DNA of 15,862 bases from a virus (lineage: Duplodnaviria > Heunggongvirae > Uroviricota > Caudoviricetes), in the IMG/VR virus record IMGVR_UViG_2609460218_000002; one strand, written 5' to 3'. The position numbers and the translations under genes were made by a program. Below the pieces are notes generated by a model, which was given only the letters and a program-made list of their open reading frames with translations, searched no databases and was not told the DNA's origin. Each line of letters opens with the position of its first letter. Position 1 is the first letter of the stretch. Below, piece after piece: positions 1 through 15,862 of this stretch.

Positions 1-1
1 A

Positions 2-247
2 GCGTTACGGGACAAAGAACGCTTTGACGGTGAAATTTTTGACCTGGACATCTCGCTGGACCATGTTGAAGGTGCCGCGCTGGAGTTTTATGAGGCAGCA
101 GCCAGAAGGAGCATCAGACAGGTCTTCCTGGATGTTGCTGCCGGGTTATGTGAAGGGGACGAGCTGTTGCCAGAAACGCGACCCTGTTCAGAGGCTCGGT
201 ATACCATAAAAATTAACAGTTCAGATAACTCGATTACGGGTTGTTAG
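2..247 (+). CDS. Hypothetical soluble acidic protein, 5' end outside window (possibly YdfR/DUF1327-like)
   Basis: Frame 2 is open from the window edge to TAG at 245-247 (82 codons) and reads as protein-like (ALRDKERFDGEIFDLDISLDHVEGAALEFYEAAARRSIRQVF...). The track ORF 24..209 is in another frame and looks off-frame (W/C-rich). It sits just upstream of the endolysin, where Qin carries ydfR; the family assignment is from memory. Confidence 0.4.
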   Translation, partial: ALRDKERFDGEIFDLDISLDHVEGAALEFYEAAARRSIRQVFLDVAAGLCEGDELLPETRPCSEARYTIKINSSDNSITGC

Positions 248-302
248 CTTTTTGCAGTTGGCTTTCCAGTATCTTTCATTGGTAGCATCCTGATAAATAT
301 CC

Positions 303-1330
<1,028 letters not shown>

Positions 1331-1512
1331 GGTAATATTAAATCGGAACATTTACATCGCGGAATGTAAAATTTAAATAAAAAGGACTCTTCCATGAGCC
1401 AAAATTCCTGAAATCTTAAGGGTAAGATAAAAGGTCTTAATCAGAATGACACGTTTTATTAATAAATAAAGCTATTCTTTCATTGCTGTGTTTTTCTTTA
1501 CAAAAGTAATCC

Positions 1513-1541
1513 TTGCTATGGGTGGTTAATCATGCGTTAAT
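1513..1541 (+). promoter_or_regulatory. Putative sigma70 promoter of the cold-shock gene (-35 TTGCTA, 17-bp spacer, -10 GTTAAT)
   Basis: TTGCTA at 1513-1518 and GTTAAT at 1536-1541, with an AT-rich UP-like tract upstream (about 1440-1512). The predicted start near 1548 leaves a leader of about 145 nt, as expected for CspA-family cold-shock genes. A TATAAT at 1585-1590 is an alternative. Confidence 0.4.
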
Positions 1542-1692
1542 GGTGTTCTGGTTTGTTACAAATTTATCTGAAGCAGTCATTGTTATAATTTTATTATTTG
1601 TACCTCTTGAGATTTCCTTGTTGGTTTTTCTCTCTGATANTTTTTTTCGGACCATTCTGCCCAAGGNCTAATTTCTTCAAAAGGTAATAATT

Positions 1693-1905
1693 ATGTCTAA
1701 CAAAATGACTGGTTTAGTGAAATGGTTTAACCCTGAAAAAGGTTTTGGTTTCATCACGCCGAAAGATGGCAGCAAAGATGTGTTTGTCCATTTCTCAGCA
1801 ATTCAGAGCAACGATTTCAAAACATTAACTGAGAATCAGGAAGTTGAATTTGGTATTGAGAACGGACCTAAAGGTCCTGCCGCTGTTCATGTAGTGGCGC
1901 TTTGA
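1693..1905 (+). CDS. cspI: Cold-shock protein, CspA family (CspI-like)
   Basis: 70 aa. RNP1 (KGFGFI) and RNP2 (VFVHF) cold-shock-domain motifs. SD AAGG 8 nt upstream of ATG. Long AT-rich upstream leader. Gene order Rz - csp - small ORFs - gnsB - ydfO matches Qin, hence cspI rather than another csp paralog. Confidence 0.9.
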
Positions 1906-1993
1906 GGTAGACAATATTACAAACCATATTCACTTTAGATGCCCGTGTTGTCATGGTTCCCAGTATAGAACATCATCTTTTGATGTTTCTGAC

Positions 1994-2104
1994 ATGAATC
2001 CTTTCGGGGCAAAATGTATCTTTTGTAAATCAATGATGATTACATTTGATAATATTTCACAATACTTAAATGCCAGCCGTCTGTCGTTGGATTTAAAAAA
2101 GTGA
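1994..2104 (+). CDS. Small zinc-ribbon-like ORF (CxxC...CxxC); upstream extension likely
   Basis: The frame is open from 1895 to TGA at 2102-2104 and reads ...HFRCPCCHGSQYRTSSFDVSDMNPFGAKCIFCKSMMITFDNISQYLNASRLSLDLKK. Two CxxC pairs about 20 residues apart. The first in-frame ATG (1994) lies after the first CPCC motif and there is no in-frame ATG/GTG/TTG upstream, so the true start is unclear. The ORF ends 7 nt before an intrinsic terminator. Below the track size cut-off. Confidence 0.3.
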   Translation: MNPFGAKCIFCKSMMITFDNISQYLNASRLSLDLKK

Positions 2105-2110
2105 AAATGA

Positions 2111-2132
2111 AGGCTCCTTCGGGAGCTTTTTT
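2111..2132 (+). terminator. Rho-independent terminator ending the cspI transcription unit
   Basis: Stem GCTCC (2113-2117) / GGAGC (2122-2126) with a UUCG tetraloop, extendable by A-U and G-U pairs, followed by TTTTTT (2127-2132). Confidence 0.6.
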
Positions 2133-2176
2133 GCTTGGTGTCTATTCGATGGATACTCACATACTACGGTAACATC

Positions 2177-2407
2177 ATGAAAAAAATCATAGNTTTTTTT
2201 AACTCTGAACCAGCAGTGGTAGTGCCAGCGATGACTGGAGTTAACACCATCATGCGTGAATATCCAAATGGCGAAAAAACACACCTTACTGTAATGGCCG
2301 CAGGGTTTCCATCTCTGACCGGAGATCATAAAGTCATTTATGTAGCCGCGGATCGACATGTTACTTCAGAAGAAATTCTGGAAGCAGCAATAAGGCTCTT
2401 GAGTTGA
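2177..2407 (+). CDS. Hypothetical 76-aa protein (possibly YnfN/YmcE-like, partner of GnsB)
   Basis: Track ORF 2135..2407 begins with TTG inside the terminator T-run, so the ATG at 2177 (MKKII...) is preferred. Protein-like composition. The minus-strand track ORF 2093..2359 is W/C/H-rich and judged spurious. Contains one N (2193). Confidence 0.5.
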   Translation: MKKIIXFFNSEPAVVVPAMTGVNTIMREYPNGEKTHLTVMAAGFPSLTGDHKVIYVAADRHVTSEEILEAAIRLLS

Positions 2408-2501
2408 TTTGATGCTATTGCATTGATAATTCAGGAAAATTCTCTTTGTCTGTTTGTGTAAAATTTAGACTATCGTATGTTGATTATTGCGATGTTTCAT
2501 C

Positions 2502-2530
2502 TTATCTTTTACACGTTTGCACCATATAAT
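2502..2530 (+). promoter_or_regulatory. Putative promoter upstream of the gnsB-like gene (-10 TATAAT at 2525-2530)
   Basis: Perfect TATAAT at 2525-2530. Candidate -35 elements are weak (TTATCT at 2502-2507 with 17-bp spacing; TTTACA at 2508-2513 with too-short spacing). Confidence 0.3.
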
Positions 2531-2578
2531 CGACTTACTGTGTAACTGGAAAGTCATAACAGACTAAAAGAGGAAATG

Positions 2579-2752
2579 ATGAATATTGAAAACTTAAAAA
2601 CAAAAGCAGAAGCAGATATTTCTGAATATATAACAAAAAAAATTATTGAACTTAAGAAAAAGACCGGGAAAGAAGTTACCAGTATTCAGTTTACCGCACG
2701 GGAAAAAATGACGGGTCTTGAAAGCTATGATGTCAAGATTAATTTAATCTGA
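2579..2752 (+). CDS. gnsB: GnsA/GnsB-family small protein
   Basis: 57 aa: MNIENLKTKAEADISEYITKKIIELKKKTGKEVTSIQFTAREKMTGLESYDVKINLI. Tandem ATGs at 2576 and 2579, with AGAGGA SD best spaced for 2579. I recognise the GnsA/GnsB family by its conserved C-terminal REKMTGLESYDVKI motif. Not in the ORF track (below size cut-off). Confidence 0.8.
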   Translation: MNIENLKTKAEADISEYITKKIIELKKKTGKEVTSIQFTAREKMTGLESYDVKINLI

Positions 2753-2781
2753 TGTATTCAATAATAAAATTTATCCATAAA

Positions 2782-2805
2782 CCTCGTTTTTACGGGGTTT
2801 TGTTA
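2782..2805 (+). terminator. Putative rho-independent terminator after the gnsB-like gene
   Basis: Stem CCTCGT (2782-2787) / ACGGGG (2792-2797) with one G-U pair, loop TTTT, then a T-rich tract. Confidence 0.5.
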
Positions 2806-2866
2806 TATTTGAATGGTTCCGAATATCTAAATCACAATTGTTGATGGTTTTTATTAAACCAATGCA

Positions 2867-2895
2867 GTCCGGCTCAGGAGTGAGAGAAGCCGGAC
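2867..2895 (-). terminator. Hairpin directly after the ydfO-like stop (candidate terminator for the minus-strand unit)
   Basis: 8-bp perfect inverted repeat GTCCGGCT (2867-2874) / AGCCGGAC (2888-2895) with a 13-nt loop, 8 nt beyond the minus-strand stop codon. The downstream U-tract on the minus strand is weak. Confidence 0.4.
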
Positions 2896-2903
2896 GTTAT
2901 GGT

Positions 2904-3314
2904 TTAGCGTGGTAAGATCTGTGTAGTTTTCTGGATGCTTTCAGTAAATAGTAATGAATTATCAAAGGTATAGTAATATCTTTTTTGTTCGTGGATATTT
3001 GTAACCCACCGAAAAACTCCTGCTTTAGCAAGGTTTCTTCTGTATTCCTGAAATGTGATCTCTCTGGATTTCAGCTTATTAGAGGTCGTTTCTATAAGAT
3101 GCCTATCCTTTGAAAATTTGACAGACACAATGTTTTTTAGGCCCTTTAATAACACTGTATTATCATTTTTTAATACAATATGAACATTCTCTGTGGCTAA
3201 ATAGTAAATGTAATGTGAGACATTGTGACGTTTTAGCTCAGAATAAAACCATTGATAGTTTAAATCGTTTCGAACTTTATCAAATATTTGTTTAAAAATG
3301 ACTACCTGATCCAT
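2904..3314 (-). CDS. ydfO: YdfO-like protein (DUF1398 family), function unknown
   Basis: Track ORF 2904..3329 (141 aa). A GGAAGG SD sits 7 nt upstream of the second ATG (3314), so a 136-aa product is preferred. The sequence ([40 protein letters not shown]...) matches my recollection of E. coli YdfO from Qin. Confidence 0.8.
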
Positions 3315-3371
3315 AGATAAACCTTCCATGTGATATGAGGGGGCGTAGTCTGCACGATTATCTAAATTTCT

Positions 3372-3605
3372 TCAATCTGGTCTGACCTGTTTTCTGAGCA
3401 ATTCAGTAATGTCACTCTTTTCTTTGTTTGCTTCAGAAGAAACTCTTTTTTCTGAGCACAGTCTCCGGCGGCAGGCTTCAATGACCCAGGCTGAGAAATT
3501 CCCGGACCCTTTTTGCTCAAGAGCGATGTTAATTTGTTCAATCATTTGGTTAGGAAAGCGGATGTTGCGGGTTGTTGTTCTGCGGGTTCTGTTCTTCGTT
3601 GACAT
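3372..3605 (-). CDS. DUF3950-family small DNA-binding protein with predicted ribbon-helix-helix fold (YlcI/YnfO-like)
   Basis: 77 aa. Basic N-terminus (MSTKNRTRRTTTRNIRF) followed by a strand-helix-helix pattern (NIRFPNQ / MIEQINIALEQ / NFSAWVIEACRRRL), consistent with an Arc/CopG-like RHH fold. Co-oriented with and 57 bp upstream of the ydfO-like gene. Matches my recollection of YlcI/YnfO proteins found next to nohD/nohQ in K-12 prophages. Confidence 0.8.
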   Translation of the reverse strand: MSTKNRTRRTTTRNIRFPNQMIEQINIALEQKGSGNFSAWVIEACRRRLCSEKRVSSEANKEKSDITELLRKQVRPD

Positions 3606-3699
3606 GAGGTTGTCCCGTATTCAGTGTCGCTGATTTGTATTGTCTGAAGTTGTTTTTACGTTAAGTTGATGCAGATCAATTAATACGATATCTGCGTCA

Positions 3700-3990
3700 T
3701 AATTGATTATTTGACGTGGTTTGATTGCGTAGATGCACGTTGTGACATGCAGATGATAATTATTATCATTTTGCGGGTCCTTTCCGGCGATCCGACAGGT
3801 TACGGGGCGGCGCCTCGCGGGTTTTCGCTATTTATGAAAATTTTCCGGTTTAAGGCATTTCCGTTCTTCTTCGTCGTAACTTAATGTTTTTATTTAAAAT
3901 ACCCCCTGAAAAGAAAGGAAACGACAGGTGCTGAAAACGAGCTTTTGGGCCTCTGTCGTTTCCTTTCTCTGTTTTTGGCCGTGGAATGAA
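3700..3990 (+). other. cos site of lambda type (cosQ, cosN, cosB with Nu1-binding R elements)
   Basis: 3640-3803 matches the lambda right end (...GGGTCCTTTCCGGCGATCCGACAGGTTACG). cosN at about 3805-3815 reads GGGCGGCG-CCT against the lambda cohesive end GGGCGGCGACCT. Downstream, AAAGGAAACGACAG (3914-3927) and its inverted copy CTGTCGTTTCCTTT (3953-3966) correspond to the Nu1-binding R3/R2 elements. A 17-bp palindrome ATGATAATTATTATCAT lies at 3752-3768. The internal cos shows prophage or concatemer topology. Confidence 0.85.
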
Positions 3991-3992
3991 CA

Positions 3993-4512
3993 ATGGAAGT
4001 CAACAAAAAGCAGCTGGCTGACATTTTCGGTGCGAGTATCCGTACCATTCAGAACTGGCAGGAACAGGGAATGCCCGTTCTGCGAGGCGGTGGCAAGGGT
4101 AATGAGGTGCTTTATGACTCTGCCGCCGTTATAAGATGGTATGCCGAAAGGGATGCTGAAATTGAGAACGAAAAGCTGCGCCGGGAAGTTGAAGAACTGC
4201 GGCAGGCCAGCGAGACAGATCTCCAGCCAGGGACTATTGAGTACGAACGCCATCGACTTACGCGTGCGCAGGCCGACGCACAGGAGCTGAAAAATGCCAG
4301 AGACTCCGCTGAAGTGGTGGAAACCGCATTCTGTACTTTCGTGCTGTCGCGGATCGCAGGTGAAATTGCCAGTATTCTCGACGGGATCCCCCTGTCGGTG
4401 CAGCGGCGTTTTCCGGAACTGGAAAACCGACATGTTGATTTCCTGAAACGGGATATCATCAAAGCCATGAACAAAGCAGCCGCGCTGGATGAACTGATAC
4501 CGGGGTTGCTGA

Positions 4513-4538
<26 letters not shown>
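3993..4538 (+). CDS. nu1: Terminase small subunit Nu1
   Basis: 181 aa, near-identical to lambda gpNu1 as I recall it (MEVNKKQLADIFGASIRTIQNWQEQGMPVLRGGGKGNEV...; N-terminal HTH DNA-binding domain), with only a few substitutions. Directly downstream of cosB. Confidence 0.97.
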
Positions 4539-8219
<3,681 letters not shown>

Positions 8220-8239
<20 letters not shown>

Positions 8240-9539
8240 TCTCCCGCATATTGCCAGCATGGCTTTTAATGAGCCGCTGATGCTTGAACCCGCCTATGCG
8301 CGGGTTTTCTTTTGTGCGCTTGCAGGCCAGCTTGGGATCAGCCGCCTGACGGATGCGGTGTCCGGCGACAGCCTGACTGCCCAGGAGGCACTCGCGACGC
8401 TGGCATTATCCGGTGATGATGACGGACCACGACAGGCCCGCAGTTATCAGGTCATGAACGGCATCGCCGTGCTGCCGGTGTCCGGCACGCTGGTCAGCCG
8501 GACGCGGGCGCTGCAGCCGTACTCGGGGATGACCGGTTACAACGGCATTATCGCCCGTCTGCAACAGGCTGCCAGCGATCCGATGGTGGACGGCATTCTG
8601 CTCGATATGGACACGCCCGGCGGGATGGTGGCGGGGGCATTTGACTGCGCTGACATCATCGCCCGTGTGCGTGACATAAAGCCGGTATGGGCGCTGGCCA
8701 ATGACATGAACTGCAGCGCAGGTCAGCTGCTTGCCAGTGCCGCCTCCCGGCGTCTGGTCACGCAGACCGCCCGAACAGGCTCCATCGGCGTCATGATGGC
8801 TCACAGTAATTACGGCGCTGCACTGGAGAAACAGGGCGTGGAAATCACGCTGATTTACAGCGGCAGCCATAAGGTGGATGGCAACCCCTACAGCCATCTA
8901 CCGGATGATGTCCGGGAAACATTGCAGTCCCGGATGGATGCAACCCGCCGGATGTTTGCACAGAAGGTGTCGGCATATACCGGCCTGTCCGTGCAGGCTG
9001 TGCTGGATACCGAGGCTGCAGTGTACAGCGGTCAGGAGGCCATTGATGCCGGACTGGCTGATGAACTTGTCAACAGCACCGATGCGATCACCGTTATGCG
9101 TGATGCACTGGATGCACGTAAATCCCGTCTCTCAGGAGGGCGAATGACCAAAGAGACTCAATCAACAACTGTTTCAGCCACTGCTTCGCAGGCTGACGTT
9201 ACTGACGTGGTGCCAGCGACGGAGGGCGAAAACGCCAGCGCGGCGCAGCCGGACGTGAACGCGCAGATCACCGCTGCGGTTGCGGCAGAAAACAGCCGCA
9301 TTATGGGGATCCTCAACTGTGAGGAGGCTCACGGACGCGAAGAACAGGCCCGCGTGCTGGCAGAAACCCCCGGTATGACCGTGGAAACGGCCCGCCGCAT
9401 TCTGGCAGCTGCACCACAGAGTGCACAGGCGCGCAGTGACACTGCGCTGGATCGTCTGATGCAGGGGGCACCGGCACCGCTGGCTGCAGGTAACCCGGCA
9501 TCTGATGCCGTTAACGATTTGCTGAACACACCAGTGTAA
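8220..9539 (+). CDS. C: Head maturation protease C (S49/ClpP-like capsid assembly protease)
   Basis: GTG start at 8220 (MTAELRNLPHIASMAFNEPL...), 439 aa, matching lambda gpC. Overlaps the B stop. The track ORF 8085..9539 over-extends the start upstream. Confidence 0.95.
9144..9539 (+). CDS. nu3: Scaffolding protein Nu3, in-frame internal initiation within C
   Basis: Strong internal SD AGGAGG (9134-9139) 4 nt before ATG 9144 (MTKETQSTTVSATASQ...), same frame and same stop as C. An alternative internal in-frame ATG is at 8934; I am not certain which is the annotated lambda nu3 start. Confidence 0.6.
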   Translation: MTKETQSTTVSATASQADVTDVVPATEGENASAAQPDVNAQITAAVAAENSRIMGILNCEEAHGREEQARVLAETPGMTVETARRILAAAPQSAQARSDTALDRLMQGAPAPLAAGNPASDAVNDLLNTPV

Positions 9540-9548
9540 GGGATGTTT

Positions 9549-9881
9549 ATGACGAGCAAAGAAACCTTTACCCATTACCAGCCGCTGGGCAATAGTGACC
9601 CGGCTCATACCGCAACCGCGCCCGGCGGATTGAGTGCGAAAGCGCCTGCAATGACCCCGCTGATGCTGGACACATCCACCCGTAAGCTGGTTGCGTGGGA
9701 TGGCACCACCGACGGTGCTGCCGTTGGCATTCTTGCGGTTGCTGCTGACCAGACCAGCACCACACTGACGTTCTACAAGTCCGGCACGTTCCGTTATGAG
9801 GATGTGCTCTGGCCGGAGGCTGCCAGCGACGAGACGAAAAAACGGACCGCGTTTGCCGGAACGGCAATCAGCATCGTTTAA
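9549..9881 (+). CDS. D: Head decoration protein D
   Basis: 110 aa ([52 protein letters not shown]...), matching lambda gpD. SD AGGGA 6 nt upstream. The track ORF starts two codons early. Confidence 0.95.
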
Positions 9882-9901
9882 CTTTACCCTTCATCACTAA
9901 A

Positions 9902-9924
9902 GGCCGCCTGTGCGGNCTTTTTTT
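9902..9924 (+). terminator. GC-rich hairpin plus T-run between D and E (terminator-like)
   Basis: GGCCGC (9902-9907) / GCGGNC (9912-9917) with loop CTGT, followed by TTTTTTT. One stem base is N (9916), and another N lies at 9931. Confidence 0.45.
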
Positions 9925-9938
9925 ACGGGANTTTTTTT

Positions 9939-10964
9939 ATGTCGATGTACACAACCGCCCAGCTGCTGGCGGCAAATGAGCAGAAATTTAAGTTTGATCC
10001 GCTGTTTCTGCGTCTCTTTTTCCGTGAGAGCTATCCCTTCACTACGGAGAAAGTCTATCTCTCACAAATTCCGGGACTGGTAAACATGGCGCTGTACGTT
10101 TCGCCGATTGTTTCCAGTGAGGTTATCCGTTCCCGTGGCGGCTCCACCTCTGAATTTACGCCGGGATATGTCAAACCCAAGCATGAGTTGAATCCGCAGA
10201 TGACCCTGCGTCGCCTGCCGGATGAAGATCCGCAGAATCTGGCGGACCCGGCTTACCGCCGCCGTCGCATCATCATGCAGAACATGCGTGACGAAGAGCT
10301 GGCCATTGCTCAGGTCGAAGAGATGCAGGCAGTTTCTGCCGTGCTCAAGGGCAAATACACCATGACCGGTGAAGCCTTCGATCCGGTTGAGGTGGATATG
10401 GGCCGCAGTGCGGCGAACAACATCACACAGTCCGGCGTCACGGAGTGGAGCAAGCGTGACAAGTCCACGTATGACCCGACCGACGATATCGAAGCCTACG
10501 CGCTGAACGCCAGCGGTGTGGTGAATATCATCGTGTTTGACCCGAAAGGCTGGGCGCTGTTCCGTTCCTTCAAAGCCGTCAAGGAGAAGCTGGATACCCG
10601 TCGCGGCTCTCATTCCGAGCTGGAGACAGCGGTGAAAGACCTGGGCAAAGCGGTGTCCTATAAGGGAATGTATGGCGATGTGGCCATCGTCGTGTATTCC
10701 GGACAGTACGTGGAAAACGGCGTCAAAAAGAACTTCCTGCCGGACAACACGATGGTGCTGGGGAACACTCAGGCTCGCGGTCTGCGCACCTATGGCTGCA
10801 TTCAGGATGCGGACGCACAGCGCGAAGGCATTAACGCCTCTGCCCGTTACCCGAAAAACTGGGTGACCACCGGCGATCCGGCGCGTGAGTTCACCATGAT
10901 TCAGTCAGCACCGCTGATGCTGCTGGCTGACCCTGATGAGTTCGTGTCCGTTCAACTGGCGTAA
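9939..10964 (+). CDS. E: Major capsid protein E
   Basis: 341 aa (MSMYTTAQLLAANEQKFKFDPLFLRLFFRESYPFTTEKVYLSQIPGLVNMALYV...), matching lambda gpE. Confidence 0.97.
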   Translation: MSMYTTAQLLAANEQKFKFDPLFLRLFFRESYPFTTEKVYLSQIPGLVNMALYVSPIVSSEVIRSRGGSTSEFTPGYVKPKHELNPQMTLRRLPDEDPQNLADPAYRRRRIIMQNMRDEELAIAQVEEMQAVSAVLKGKYTMTGEAFDPVEVDMGRSAANNITQSGVTEWSKRDKSTYDPTDDIEAYALNASGVVNIIVFDPKGWALFRSFKAVKEKLDTRRGSHSELETAVKDLGKAVSYKGMYGDVAIVVYSGQYVENGVKKNFLPDNTMVLGNTQARGLRTYGCIQDADAQREGINASARYPKNWVTTGDPAREFTMIQSAPLMLLADPDEFVSVQLA

Positions 10965-11005
10965 TCATGGCCCTTCGGGGCCATTTTCTCTCTGTGGAGG
11001 AGTTC

Positions 11006-11404
11006 ATGACGAAAGATGAACTGATTGCCCGTCTTCAGGAGCTGGGTGAGCAACTGAACCGCGATGTCAGTTTGACGGGAACGAAAGAAGAACTGGCGCT
11101 TCGTGTGGCAGAGCTGGAAGAAGAGCTTGATGACACGGATGAAACTGCCGGTCAGGACACCCCTCTCAGCCGGGAAAATGTGCTGACCGGGCATGAAAAT
11201 GAGGTGGTATCAGCGCAGCCGGATACCGTGATTCAGGATACGGCTGAACTGGTCACGGTCGTGGCACTGGTGACGCTGCATACTGATGCACTTCACGCCA
11301 CGCGGGATAAACCTGTGGCATTTGTGCTGCCGGGAACGGCGTTTCGTGTCTCTGCCGGTGTGGCAGCCGAAATGACAGAGCGCGGCCTGGCCAGAATGCA
11401 ATAA
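11006..11404 (+). CDS. FI: DNA packaging protein FI
   Basis: Start at ATG 11006 (MTKDELIARLQELGEQLNRDVSLTGTKEELALRVAELEEELDD...) with GGAGG SD 5 nt upstream; 132 aa as in lambda gpFI. The track ORF 10967..11404 begins at an upstream in-frame ATG without an SD. Confidence 0.93.
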   Translation: MTKDELIARLQELGEQLNRDVSLTGTKEELALRVAELEEELDDTDETAGQDTPLSRENVLTGHENEVVSAQPDTVIQDTAELVTVVALVTLHTDALHATRDKPVAFVLPGTAFRVSAGVAAEMTERGLARMQ

Positions 11405-11415
11405 CGGGAGGCGCT

Positions 11416-11769
11416 GTGGCTGATTTCGATAACCTGTTCGATGCTGCCATTGCCCGCGCCGATGAAACGATACGCGGGTACATGGGAACGTCAGCCACCA
11501 TTACATCCGGTGAGCAGTCAGGTGCGGTGATACGTGGTGTTTTTGATGACCCTGAAAATATCAGCTATGCCGGACAGGGCGTGCGCGTTGAAGGCTCCAG
11601 CCCGTCCCTGTTTGTCCGGACTGATGATGCGCGGCAGCTGCGGCGTGGAGACACGCTGACCATCGGTGAGGAAAATTTCTGGGTAGATCGGGTTTCGCCG
11701 GATGATGGCGGAAGTTGTCATCTCTGGCTTGGACGGGGCGTACCGCCTGCCGTTAACCGTCGCCGCTGA
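11416..11769 (+). CDS. FII: Head-tail connector (head completion) protein FII
   Basis: 117 aa, GTG start, matching lambda gpFII (MADFDNLFDAAIARADETIRGYMGTSATITSGEQSG...). Confidence 0.95.
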   Translation: MADFDNLFDAAIARADETIRGYMGTSATITSGEQSGAVIRGVFDDPENISYAGQGVRVEGSSPSLFVRTDDARQLRRGDTLTIGEENFWVDRVSPDDGGSCHLWLGRGVPPAVNRRR

Positions 11770-11780
11770 AAGGGGGATGT

Positions 11781-12358
11781 ATGGTCATAAAAGGTCTTGA
11801 GCAGGCCGTTGAAAACCTCAGCCGTATCAGCAAAACGGCGGTGCCTGGTGCCGCCGCAATGGCCATTAACCGCGTTGCTTCATCCGCGATATCGCAGTCG
11901 GCGTCACAGGTTGCCCGTGAGACAAAGGTACGCCGGAAACTGGTAAAGGAAAGGGCCAGGCTGAAAAGGGCCACGGTCAAAAATCCGCAGGCCAGAATCA
12001 GGTTAACCGGGGGGATTTGCCCGTAATAAAGCTGGGTAACGCGCGGATTGTCCTGTCCCGACGCAGGCATCGTAAAAAGGGGCAGCGTTCANGCCTGAAA
12101 GGTGGCGGCAGCGTGCTTGTGGTGGGAAACCGTCGTATTCCCGGCGCGTTTATTCAGCAACTGAAAAATGGCCGCTGGCATGTCATGCAGCGTGTGGCCG
12201 GGAAAAACCGTTACCCCATTGATGTGGTGAAAATCCCGATGGCGGTGCCGCTGACCACGGCGTTTAAACAGAATATTGAACGGATACGGCGTGAACGTCT
12301 TCCGAAAGAGCTGGGCTATGCGCTGCAGCATCAACTGAGAATGGTAATAAAGCGATGA
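11781..12358 (+). pseudogene. Z: Tail completion protein Z, interrupted by an apparent 1-nt frameshift at about 12000
   Basis: Track ORF 11781..12026 matches the gpZ N-terminus up to ...NPQARI, then terminates. The remainder (...VNRGDLPVIKLGNARIVLSRRR...LRMVIKR) continues in the +2 frame through 12358. One N at 12092. May be a sequence error. Confidence 0.8.
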
Positions 12359-12750
12359 AACATACTGAACTCCGTGCAGCCGTACTGGATGCACTGGAGA
12401 AGCATGACACCGGGGCGACGCTTTTTGATGGTCGCCCCGCTGTTTTTGATGAGGCGGATTTTCCGGCAATTGCCGTTTATCTCACCGGCGCTGAATACAC
12501 GGGCGAAGAGCTGGACAGCGATACCTGGCAGGCGGAGCTGCATATTGAAGTTTTCCTGCCTGCTCAGGTGCCGGATTCAGAGCTGGATTCGTGGATGGAG
12601 TCCCGGATTTATCCGGTGATGAGCGATATCCCGGCACTGTCAGATTTGATCACCAGTATGGTGGCCAGCGGCTATGACTACCGGCGCGACGATGATGCGG
12701 GCCTGTGGAGTTCAGCCGATCTGACTTATGTCATTACCTATGAAATGTGA
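12355..12750 (+). CDS. U: Tail terminator (tail tube terminator) protein U
   Basis: 131 aa (MKHTELRAAVLDALEKHDTGATLFDGRPAVFDEADFPAIAVYLTGAEYTGEELDSD...), matching lambda gpU. ATGA overlap with the end of Z. Confidence 0.95.
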   Translation: MKHTELRAAVLDALEKHDTGATLFDGRPAVFDEADFPAIAVYLTGAEYTGEELDSDTWQAELHIEVFLPAQVPDSELDSWMESRIYPVMSDIPALSDLITSMVASGYDYRRDDDAGLWSSADLTYVITYEM

Positions 12751-12757
12751 GGACGCT

Positions 12758-13498
12758 ATGCCTGTACCAAATCCAGTAATGCCGGTGAAAGGGGCCGGGA
12801 CCACACTGTNGGTTTATAAGGGGAACGGTGANCCTTATGCGAACCCGCTTTCAGACGTTGACTGGTCGCGTCTGGCTAAAGTTAAAGACCTGACGCCCGG
12901 CGAACTGACCGCTGAGTCCTATGACGACAGCTATCTCGATGATGAAGATGCGGACTGGACTGCGACCGGGCAGGGGCAGAAATCTGCCGGAGATACCAGC
13001 TTCACGCTGGCGTGGATGCCCGGAGAGCAGGGGCAGCAGGCGCTGCTGGCGTGGTTTAATGAAGGGGATACCCGAGCCTATAAAATCCGCTTCCCGAATG
13101 GCACGGTCGATGTGTTCCGCGGCTGGGTCAGCAGTATCGGTAAGGCGGTGACGGCGAAGGAAGTGATCACCCGCACGGTGAAGGTCACCAATGTGGGCCG
13201 TCCGTCGATGGCAGAAGATCACAGCACGGTCACAGCGGCAACCGGCATGACCGTGACGCCTGCCAGCACCTCGGTGGTGAAAGGGCAGAGCACCACGCTG
13301 ACCGTGGCATTCCAGCCGGAAGGCGCAACCGACAAGAGCTTCCGTGCGGTGTCAGCGGATAAAACAAAAGCCACCGTGTCGGTCAGTGGTATGACCATCA
13401 CCGTGAAAGGTGTTGCTGCAGGCAAGGTCAACATTCCGGTCGTATCCGGTAATGGTGAACTTGCTGCGGTTGCAGAAATCAACGTCACCGCCAGTTAA
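12758..13498 (+). CDS. V: Major tail tube protein V (with C-terminal Ig-like domain)
   Basis: Start at ATG 12758 ([17 protein letters not shown]...), 246 aa as in lambda gpV. C-terminal part is Thr/Val-rich, Ig-like. Two N at 12810 and 12832. The track ORF begins at an upstream in-frame ATG. Confidence 0.95.
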
Positions 13499-13513
13499 TC
13501 CGGAGAGTCAGCG

Positions 13514-13936
13514 ATGTTCCTGAAAACCGAATCATTTGAACATAACGGTGTGACCGTCACGCTTTCTGAACTGTCAGCCCTGCAGCGTATTGAGCATCTC
13601 GNCCTGATGAAACGGCAGGCAGAACAGGCGGAGTCAGACAGCAACCGGAAGTTTACTGTGGAAGACGCCATCAGAACCGGTGCTTGTGTGGTGGCGATGT
13701 CCCTGTGGCATAACCATCCGCAGAAGACGCAGATGCCTTCCATGAATGAAGCCGTTAAACAGATTGAGCAGGAAGTGCTTACCACCTGGCCTACAGAGGC
13801 AATTTCTCATGCTGAAAACGTGGTGTACCGGCTGTCCGGTATGTATGAGTTTGTGGTGAATGATGCCCCTGAACAGGCAGAGGACGCCGGGCCTGCAGAG
13901 CCTGTTTCTGCGGGAAAGTGTTCGACGGTGAGCTGA
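13514..13936 (+). CDS. G: Tail assembly chaperone G
   Basis: 140 aa (MFLKTESFEHNGVTVTLSELSALQRIEHL...), matching lambda gpG. One N at 13602. Confidence 0.95.
   Translation: MFLKTESFEHNGVTVTLSELSALQRIEHLXLMKRQAEQAESDSNRKFTVEDAIRTGACVVAMSLWHNHPQKTQMPSMNEAVKQIEQEVLTTWPTEAISHAENVVYRLSGMYEFVVNDAPEQAEDAGPAEPVSAGKCSTVS
13912..13918 (+). promoter_or_regulatory. Programmed -1 ribosomal frameshift slippery heptamer GGGAAAG (G to G-T fusion)
   Basis: GGGAAAG at 13912-13918 near the 3' end of G, where the -1 frame (T) is open. This is the conserved tail-chaperone frameshift of lambda-like phages. Confidence 0.85.
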
Positions 13937-14352
13937 GTTTTGCCCTGAAACTGGCGCGCGAGATGGGGCGACCCGACTGGCGTGCCATGCTTGCCGGGAT
14001 GTCATCCACGGAGTATGCCGACTGGCACCGCTTTTACAGTACCCATTATTTTCATGATGTTCTGCTGGATATGCACTTTTCCGGGCTGACGTACACCGTG
14101 CTCAGCCTGTTTTTCAGCGATCCGGATATGCATCCGCTGGATTTCAGTCTGCTGAACCGGCGCGAGGCTGACGAAGAGACTGAAGATGATGTGCTGATGC
14201 AGAAAGCGGCAGGGCTTGCCGGAGGCGTTCGTTTTGGCCCGGACGGGAATGAAGTTATCCCCGCTTCCCCGGATGTGGCGGACATGACGGAGGATGACGT
14301 AATGCTGATGACAGTATCAGAAGGGATCGCAGGAGGAGTCCGGTATGGCTGA
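13918..14352 (+). CDS. T: T segment of the G-T tail assembly chaperone fusion (expressed by -1 frameshift from G)
   Basis: Open -1 frame 13918..14352 matching lambda gpT (…LSFALKLAREMGRPDWRAMLAGMSSTEYADWHRFYSTHYF...). No independent initiation expected. Confidence 0.9.
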   Translation: MFDGELSFALKLAREMGRPDWRAMLAGMSSTEYADWHRFYSTHYFHDVLLDMHFSGLTYTVLSLFFSDPDMHPLDFSLLNRREADEETEDDVLMQKAAGLAGGVRFGPDGNEVIPASPDVADMTEDDVMLMTVSEGIAGGVRYG

Positions 14353-15655
14353 ACCGGTAGGCGATCTGGTCGTTGATTTAAGTCTGGATGCGGCCAGATT
14401 TGACGAGCAGATGGCCAGAGTCAGGCGTCATTTTTCCGGTACGGAAACTGATGCGAAAAAAACAGCGGCAGTCGTTGAACAGTCGCTGAGCCGACAGGCG
14501 CTGGCTGCACAGAAAGCGGGGATTTCCGTCGGGCAGTATAAAGCCGCCATGCGTATGCTGCCTGCACAGTTCACCGACGTGGCCACGCAGCTTGCAGGCG
14601 GGCAAAGTCCGTGGCTGATCCTGCTGCAACAGGGTGGTCAGGTTAAGGACTCCTTCGGCGGGATGATCCCCATGTTCAGGGGGCTTGCCGGTGCGATCAC
14701 CCTGCCGATGGTGGGGGCCACCTCGCTGGCGGTGGCGACCGGTGCGCTGGCGTATGCCTGGTATCAGGCAACTCAACCCTGTCCGATTTCAACAAAACGC
14801 TGGTCCTTTCCGGCAATCAGGCGGGACTGACGGCAGATCGTATTCTGGCCCTGTCCAGAGCCGGGCAGGCGGCAGGGCTGACGTTTAACCAGACCAGCGA
14901 GTCACTGACGGCGCTGGTGAATGCCGGTGTGCGTGGTGGTGAGCAGTTTGAGGCGATCAGCCAGAGTGTGGCGCGTTTCTCCTCTGCATCCGGCGTGGAG
15001 GTGGACAAGGTCGCTGAAGCCTTCGGGAAGCTGACCACAGACCCGACGTCGGGACTGACAGCGATGGCACGTCAGTTCCATAACGTGACGGCGGAGCAGA
15101 TTGCGTATGTTGCTCAGTTGCAGCGTTCCGGAGATGAAGCCGGGGCATTGCAGGCGGCGAACGAGGCCGCAACGAAAGGGTTTGATGACCAGACCCGCCG
15201 CCTGAAAGAGAACATGGGCACGCTGGAGACCTGGGCAGACAGGACAGCACGGGCATTCAAATCCATGTGGGATTCGGTGCTGGATATTGGTCGCCCGGAC
15301 ACTGCCCAGGGAATGCTGGAGAAAGCAGAAAAGGCTTTTGATGAGGCGGACAAAAAATGGCAGTGGTATCAGAGCCGAAGCCACCGGCGCGGTAAAACCT
15401 CAGCATTTCTTGCCAATCTCCGGGGAGCATGGGAGGACAGAGCGAATGCGCAACTTNGGCTTTCAGCCGCCACGTTGCAGGCCGATCTTGAAAAGGCCAG
15501 AGAGATGGCAGCAAAGGACTGGGCCGAGTCTGAGGCATCACGGCTGAAATATACCGAAGAGGCGCAGAAGGCTTACGAACGCCTGCAGACGCCGCTGGAG
15601 AAATATACCGCCCGTCAGGAAGAACTGAACAAGGCACTGAAAGACGGGAAAATCC
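14345..15655 (+). pseudogene. H: Tail tape measure protein H, disrupted by an apparent 1-nt frameshift (about 14767) and truncated by IS1 insertion at 15656
   Basis: Track ORF 14345..14830 matches the lambda gpH N-terminus to ...AYAWYQ. The gpH sequence (GNSTLSDFNKTLVLSGNQAGLTADR...) then continues in the -1 frame, which the track picks up as ORF 14917..15660. That frame ends at a TAG (15658-15660) created by the IS1 terminal repeat, about 437 codons into a gene that is about 853 codons in lambda. One N at 15457. Confidence 0.85.
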
Positions 15656-15862
15656 GGTAGTGACTCCAACTTACTGATAGTGTTTTATGTTCAGATAATG
15701 CCCGATGACCTTGTCATGCAGCTCCACCGATTTTGAGAACGACAGCGACTTCCGTCCCAGCCTTGCCAGATGTTGTCTCAGATTCAGATTATGTCGCTCA
15801 ATGCGCTGAGTGTAACGCTTGCTGATAACGTGCAGCTTTCCCTTCAGGCGTGATTCATACAG
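15656..15862 (-). mobile_element. IS1 insertion sequence, partial (right end, inverted; continues beyond window)
   Basis: From 15656 the sequence GGTAGTGACTCCAACTTACTGATAGTGTTTTATGTTCAGATAATGCCCGATGAC... is the reverse complement of the IS1 right terminus, including the terminal inverted repeat and the insB 3' end, with a few substitutions relative to canonical IS1. Lambda-like H sequence stops exactly at this point. Confidence 0.9.
15671..15862 (-). CDS. insB: IS1 transposase InsB, C-terminal portion (5' end outside window)
   Basis: Minus-strand translation ends ...[15 protein letters not shown] with stop (TAA, reverse complement of 15671-15673), as I recall for the IS1 InsB C-terminus. No start in window, so not in the ORF track. 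Confidence 0.8.

Follow-up and report, generated by a model that had tools for sequence, protein, structure and literature searches.

The window, by which we mean the whole stretch of 15,862 bp analysed here, corresponds to the late region of a lambda-like prophage of the Qin type from an Escherichia coli lineage, with the gene order ydfR–rrrQ–rzpQ–cspI–gnsB–ydfO–ynfO–cos–nohA/Nu1–A–W–B–C–D–E–FI–FII–Z–U–V–G–T–H. An identical record, found through the major capsid protein, shows that it is the entire draft contig JNOE01000103.1 of assembly GCA_000740545.1. The gene order is that of lambda and the Qin-type lambdoid prophages; whereas Qin of E. coli K-12 ends near nohA, this relative keeps the full head and tail module. 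Position 1 falls inside ydfR of the lysis cassette. YdfR is very widespread in the look-up, and presumably the assembly broke off here as well, on sequence that this genome also has in a second lambdoid prophage. The Qin-type cargo (cspI, ynfQ/R, gnsB, ydfO and ynfO) separates the lysis genes from cos. At 1547–1932 on the plus strand a match to the Rfam cspA thermoregulator (107.9 bits, E = 3e-27) extends over the 5′ leader of cspI, the cold-shock gene of the prophage, and into the beginning of the gene.

The H/IS1 junction

At its right-hand end the window contains the following features.

14345–15655, plus strand: 5′ part of the tape-measure gene H (nt 1–1312 of 2580), from homology and Pfam TMP_2
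15648–15655, no strand: target GAAAATCC, left copy of the 8-bp target-site duplication, which flanks both IS1 ends in the related locus L014
15656–15862, minus strand: right-hand 207 bp of the 768 bp of IS1, with 207/207 identity to E. coli IS1 copies
15656–15678, no strand: right terminal inverted repeat of IS1, GGTAGTGACTCCAACTTACTGAT, identical to the left repeat at 18 of its 23 positions
15671–15862, minus strand: last 63 codons and stop of insB′ (C-terminal part of the InsAB′ DDE transposase), from translation and Pfam DDE_Tnp_IS1
15658–15660, plus strand: TAG stop within the IS1 inverted repeat, ending the truncated H reading frame

Homology to H begins at 14345, at 95–99.3% to the tape-measure genes of lambda-like phages, and all of the phage alignments stop at query base 1311, which is window position 15655. 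The best matches among ∼850 E. coli genomes cover positions 1–15655 at 99.8% and nothing beyond 15655. The remaining bases (15656–15862) are identical at 207 of 207 positions to IS1 in many E. coli genomes, for example ATCC 8739 (E = 2e-103); over these 207 bp the element is an iso-form that is ∼93% identical to IS1A. The C-terminus of InsB is read from the minus strand and corresponds to positions 69–131 of the 131 in the Pfam DDE_Tnp_IS1 profile (PF03400; E = 9e-32, 110.6 bits with a cut-off of 24.1). A sequence-only reading of the window had proposed an IS1 in H with the junction at 15655/15656 and H cut at about codon 437. The exact end of the H alignments and the full identity to IS1 bear out the junction, and the codon proves to be exact: the insertion point lies after nt 1312 of the 2580-nt gene, in codon 438, and the truncated product consists of 437 native residues and an Arg, encoded by the codon across the junction, followed by the TAG stop. 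Intact prophages in complete genomes are 99.8% identical to the window, whereas in the lineage of the window the 859-residue H is broken after residue 437.

The window includes 207 bp of IS1 and no more because the draft contig, of which it is the whole, is broken at a multi-copy repeat. Since position 15862 is a contig end within this repeat, the window alone cannot separate a simple insertion from a rearrangement.

The far side of the insertion in sister assemblies

The far junction was reached by repairing two errors in H in silico and using the resulting 438-aa truncated protein in an exact look-up. This sequence is present on 22 contigs (NCBI accessions EFF9713650.1, HCN0079884.1 and NJX06975.1). 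Contig PXIF01000013.1 (GCA_003057355.1, 98 kb; loci L014, L019 and L026) spans the entire insertion, in the order H nt 1–1312, 768-bp IS1, GAAAATCC, H nt 1313–2580, M, L, K, I, J, lom and stf; the 1007-aa tail-fibre protein of this contig gave no match by exact look-up. The element occupies L014 11313–12080, exactly 768 bp, with GAAAATCC on both sides, as it is also in L026; window positions 15656–15862 are identical to L014 11313–11519, from where IS1 runs on to its full length. Empty sites are found in the close relatives L002, L020 and L021, and in L002 and L021 the site reads GACGGGAAAATCCTGCAGG, with GAAAATCC once only. When IS1 and one copy of the repeat are removed in silico an 859-aa H reading frame results, with three amino-acid differences from the intact H of NZ_CP148578; only after this removal does the lineage give a single H reading frame in the range of about 850–860 aa.

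The left junction also occurs in six further contigs (L015–L018, L023 and L025) and the right junction, reading ...GGCAGCATCACC and then GAAAATCCTGCAGG, in seven (L027–L033, from NCBI, ENA metagenome and Logan assemblies). Both are present in the metagenome samples ERZ27246795 and ERZ27272524, and in all both junctions were found in more than ten independent assemblies. The short-read contigs stop 35–245 bases into IS1, the window at 207. In 5,426 complete E. coli genomes the junction (407 nt) matched no place covering at least 80% of the query, and the species-representative genomes of GTDB contained no exact copy of a 38-nt junction sequence. A look-up with gpT was unspecific (2,965 blocks), with H intact in all among those listed. 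A contig that ends in a repeat can thus be resolved through a junction-specific truncated protein in other assemblies. The sister assemblies show a simple insertion: IS1 has its two ends, the target is duplicated and H continues colinearly beyond; the second end, an 8–9 bp duplication and the resumption of H had all been named in the sequence-only reading as what to look for beyond the window, and the duplication turns out to be 8 bp. As these assemblies are near-identical to the window, we infer that H resumes in the same way in the window's own strain.

The inserted element conforms to the published description of IS1 (PMC12428005), in which a 768-bp element expresses the InsAB′ transposase through a −1 frameshift at A6C and leaves a target duplication of 8 or 9 bp. 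The copy in L014 has an intact insA (91 aa), AAAAAAC (A6C) at position 306 and an insB′ frame that is open to its stop; the record annotates the transposase as a 232-aa product over 698 nt. Its left repeat (IRL) is GGTGATGCTGCCAACTTACTGAT, and the terminal repeats agree at 18 of 23 positions. The ∼768-bp length, ∼23-bp imperfect repeats, A6C frames, DDE domain and 8-bp duplication are thus all present, and the full element shares 99.9% identity with complete IS1 copies of E. coli. The coding capacity of this copy is intact. In comparison with the IS1 family (for example IS1A and IS1E of E. coli K-12) there is no structural difference; the insertion site alone is particular. The insA–insB′ frames are read antisense to H.

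Domains and position place H in the lambda tape-measure family, as a member disrupted by IS1. The repaired 438-aa product matches TMP_2 (E = 2.9e-71) and the 404-aa 3′ reading frame of L014 matches Tape_meas_lam_C (E = 9.6e-22), the two domains of lambda H and its Qin-type counterparts, so that IS1 parts the TMP_2 half from the Tape_meas_lam_C half. In the gene tables of L002, L014 and L019 the gene follows immediately on the G/T chaperone genes and precedes M–L–K–I–J. From Nu1 to the tail-fibre gene of the spanning contig every other called late gene is full length, and IS1 is the sole lesion among them. The H gene of L021 (13801–16380; Logan DRR741588) is one of those with an empty site. This locus matches the window without a difference as far as the insertion site, and the identity continues over 54 nt more of H, through nt 1366; further 3′ its H diverges, strongly beyond ∼nt 2300 (27 amino-acid differences). 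By this comparison the tape-measure gene is mosaic among otherwise near-identical prophages.

Alternative readings and sequencing errors

Taken together, we consider it very probable that a standard 768-bp IS1 transposed into codon 438 of H in a Qin-type E. coli prophage, duplicating the 8 bp GAAAATCC and coming to lie with insA–insB′ antisense to the gene. In this event InsAB′, produced by −1 frameshifting at A6C, would have made staggered cuts 8 bp apart in the target.

The alternative that survives best is that in the source strain the IS1 borders an IS1-mediated deletion or inversion, so that the 3′ half of H and the tail genes beyond it are lost or no longer adjacent. The window ends inside IS1, with the far side out of view, and a look-up of the 404-aa 3′ reading frame returned no contig of GCA_000740545.1. 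There is also a precedent in E. coli 14EC007 (NZ_CP024131.1; L001 6001–6865), whose IS1A has ynfO as one neighbour and H, starting at ∼nt 1216, as the other; cos, every head gene and the 5′ half of H are absent there. The empty look-up is, however, uninformative, because the homopolymer errors in this assembly, about one per kb, would alter the protein sequence, and every left-junction assembly that could be checked either shows the right junction with the 8-bp duplication or pairs with it. We therefore regard a rearrangement in the source strain as unlikely. The 14EC007 element resembles the present one in that it lies in the same gene, 97 nt away and in the same orientation; that case, an instance of the IS-mediated decay of lambdoid prophages, is a deletion, whereas in the lineage of the window IS1 simply inserted, duplicating its target without loss of sequence. 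Judged by these arrangements, the IS1-associated deletion of 14EC007 is independent of the present insertion.

The reading frame of H in the window is also broken upstream of the junction, at 14766, which the sequence-only reading had overlooked. All that separates the 15,862 bases of the window from L019 are 12 N's, four indels in homopolymer runs and a miscall at 12093, adjacent to an N. The N's (1059, 1640, 1667, 2193, 6357, 9916, 9931, 12092, 12810, 12832, 13602 and 15457) all sit at the starts of homopolymer runs. The indels comprise 1-nt undercalls at 3812, 12000 and 14766 and an extra A at 1429, the last seen only against the more distant relative L002. Two of them give apparent frameshifts, in H at 14766 (GGG read as GG), leaving the frames 14345–14830 and 14917–15660, and in Z at 12000; neither is present in any clean assembly of the same lineage. 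By this comparison both frameshifts and the N at 15457 are sequencing errors, probably from a pyrosequencing-type platform. A look-up with the frameshifted 161-aa H fragment gave L003 (Logan SRR1765575) as its sole match, a different strain that is 97.8% identical, has H without IS1, reads GG at the equivalent of 14766 and has further homopolymer indels (including one at the equivalent of 15042). The shared GG suggests a systematic homopolymer miscall in this context and not shared ancestry; a real GG mutation common to the window and L003 was considered and dropped, as the clean sister assemblies read GGG. Apparent frameshifts in drafts with homopolymer errors should not be taken as biology.

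If the frameshift were real, H would already have been a pseudogene and IS1 would have hit a dead gene. The break at 14766 and the same GG in L003 would fit this, but the clean sisters that share the junction have GGG and an uninterrupted 438-aa reading frame, the differences of the window are all N's, homopolymer lengths or a miscall next to an N, and L003 has further homopolymer indels of its own, making this account highly improbable. That the junction itself is an artefact, a wrongly extended contig end or a chimeric join, can practically be dismissed: the contig is of low quality (in 15.9 kb, the 12 N's, four indels and single miscall given above) and its end lies in a multi-copy repeat, but the same junction occurs in at least seven other independent assemblies from different assemblers and samples (NCBI, ENA MEGAHIT metagenomes and Logan) and the complementary right junction carries the matching 8-bp duplication, and with both junctions in many independent assemblies the chimera that the sequence-only reading had allowed for fails.

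Predicted consequences for the prophage

In lambda, H is required for tail building; G/GT assist its addition to the initiator based on J, and polymerisation of V takes place around H (PMC3224144). The 438-aa fragment would be unable to complete the tail initiator, so V would not polymerise, and the output of the prophage would be at most tail-less filled heads, unless H were supplied in trans or IS1 excised precisely. With no full-length H, we would therefore expect no tails and, unaided, no infectious particles; tail assembly is almost certainly lost and the prophage defective, which supports what the sequence-only reading had proposed. A consensus scan of the inserted IS1 found neither an intrinsic terminator in the sense of H nor an outward promoter towards the 3′ part of H, the sole site being the known inward promoter-like site in IRL. 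Any polarity would therefore have to be Rho-dependent, and the downstream tail genes may be subject to such polarity behind the premature stop. Late transcription antiterminated by Q may read through IS1.

The insertion looks recent: none of the other called late genes is shortened, the two copies of the duplication agree perfectly and H, once healed, is only three amino acids away from an intact H. The H::IS1 allele is present on more than 20 public contigs, including gut-type metagenome assemblies, and could be imagined as a selected or reversible state instead of plain decay. As a selected state it would lock in a prophage whose cargo benefits the host (cspI, gnsB and others) while the lysis and head genes are kept; as a reversible state it would act as a rare on-switch, with precise excision between the 8-bp repeats restoring a perfect 859-aa H. 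No pointers to selection on the allele were found in the sequence evidence, and we consider either version very unlikely.

The finding is real but ordinary, a textbook IS1 in a textbook gene. We found no paper on this particular insertion and none for the two assembly accessions, and the truncated H protein is already annotated at NCBI; the result has little significance beyond annotation. For annotation, the two H fragments are best treated as one disrupted gene and the prophage scored as tail-defective, with a late region that seems intact bar one IS1 in H.

The lineage also has a substitution at cosN. At window positions 3805–3815 the 12-nt cohesive-end sequence reads GGGCGGCG-CCT, and in five clean sister assemblies it is GGGCGGCGCCCT (L019 3868–3879), a change of A to C at position 9 of the GGGCGGCGACCT of lambda. 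A 28-nt pattern containing this variant has 0 matches in IMG/VR, compared with at least 120 for the canonical pattern, and the best full-length matches to the variant listed for the 5,426 complete E. coli genomes each differ from it at one position; on these counts the substitution of the lineage appears to be rare. It is found alike in contigs with an intact H (L021) and in those with H::IS1, and could be a second, older defect of the prophage.
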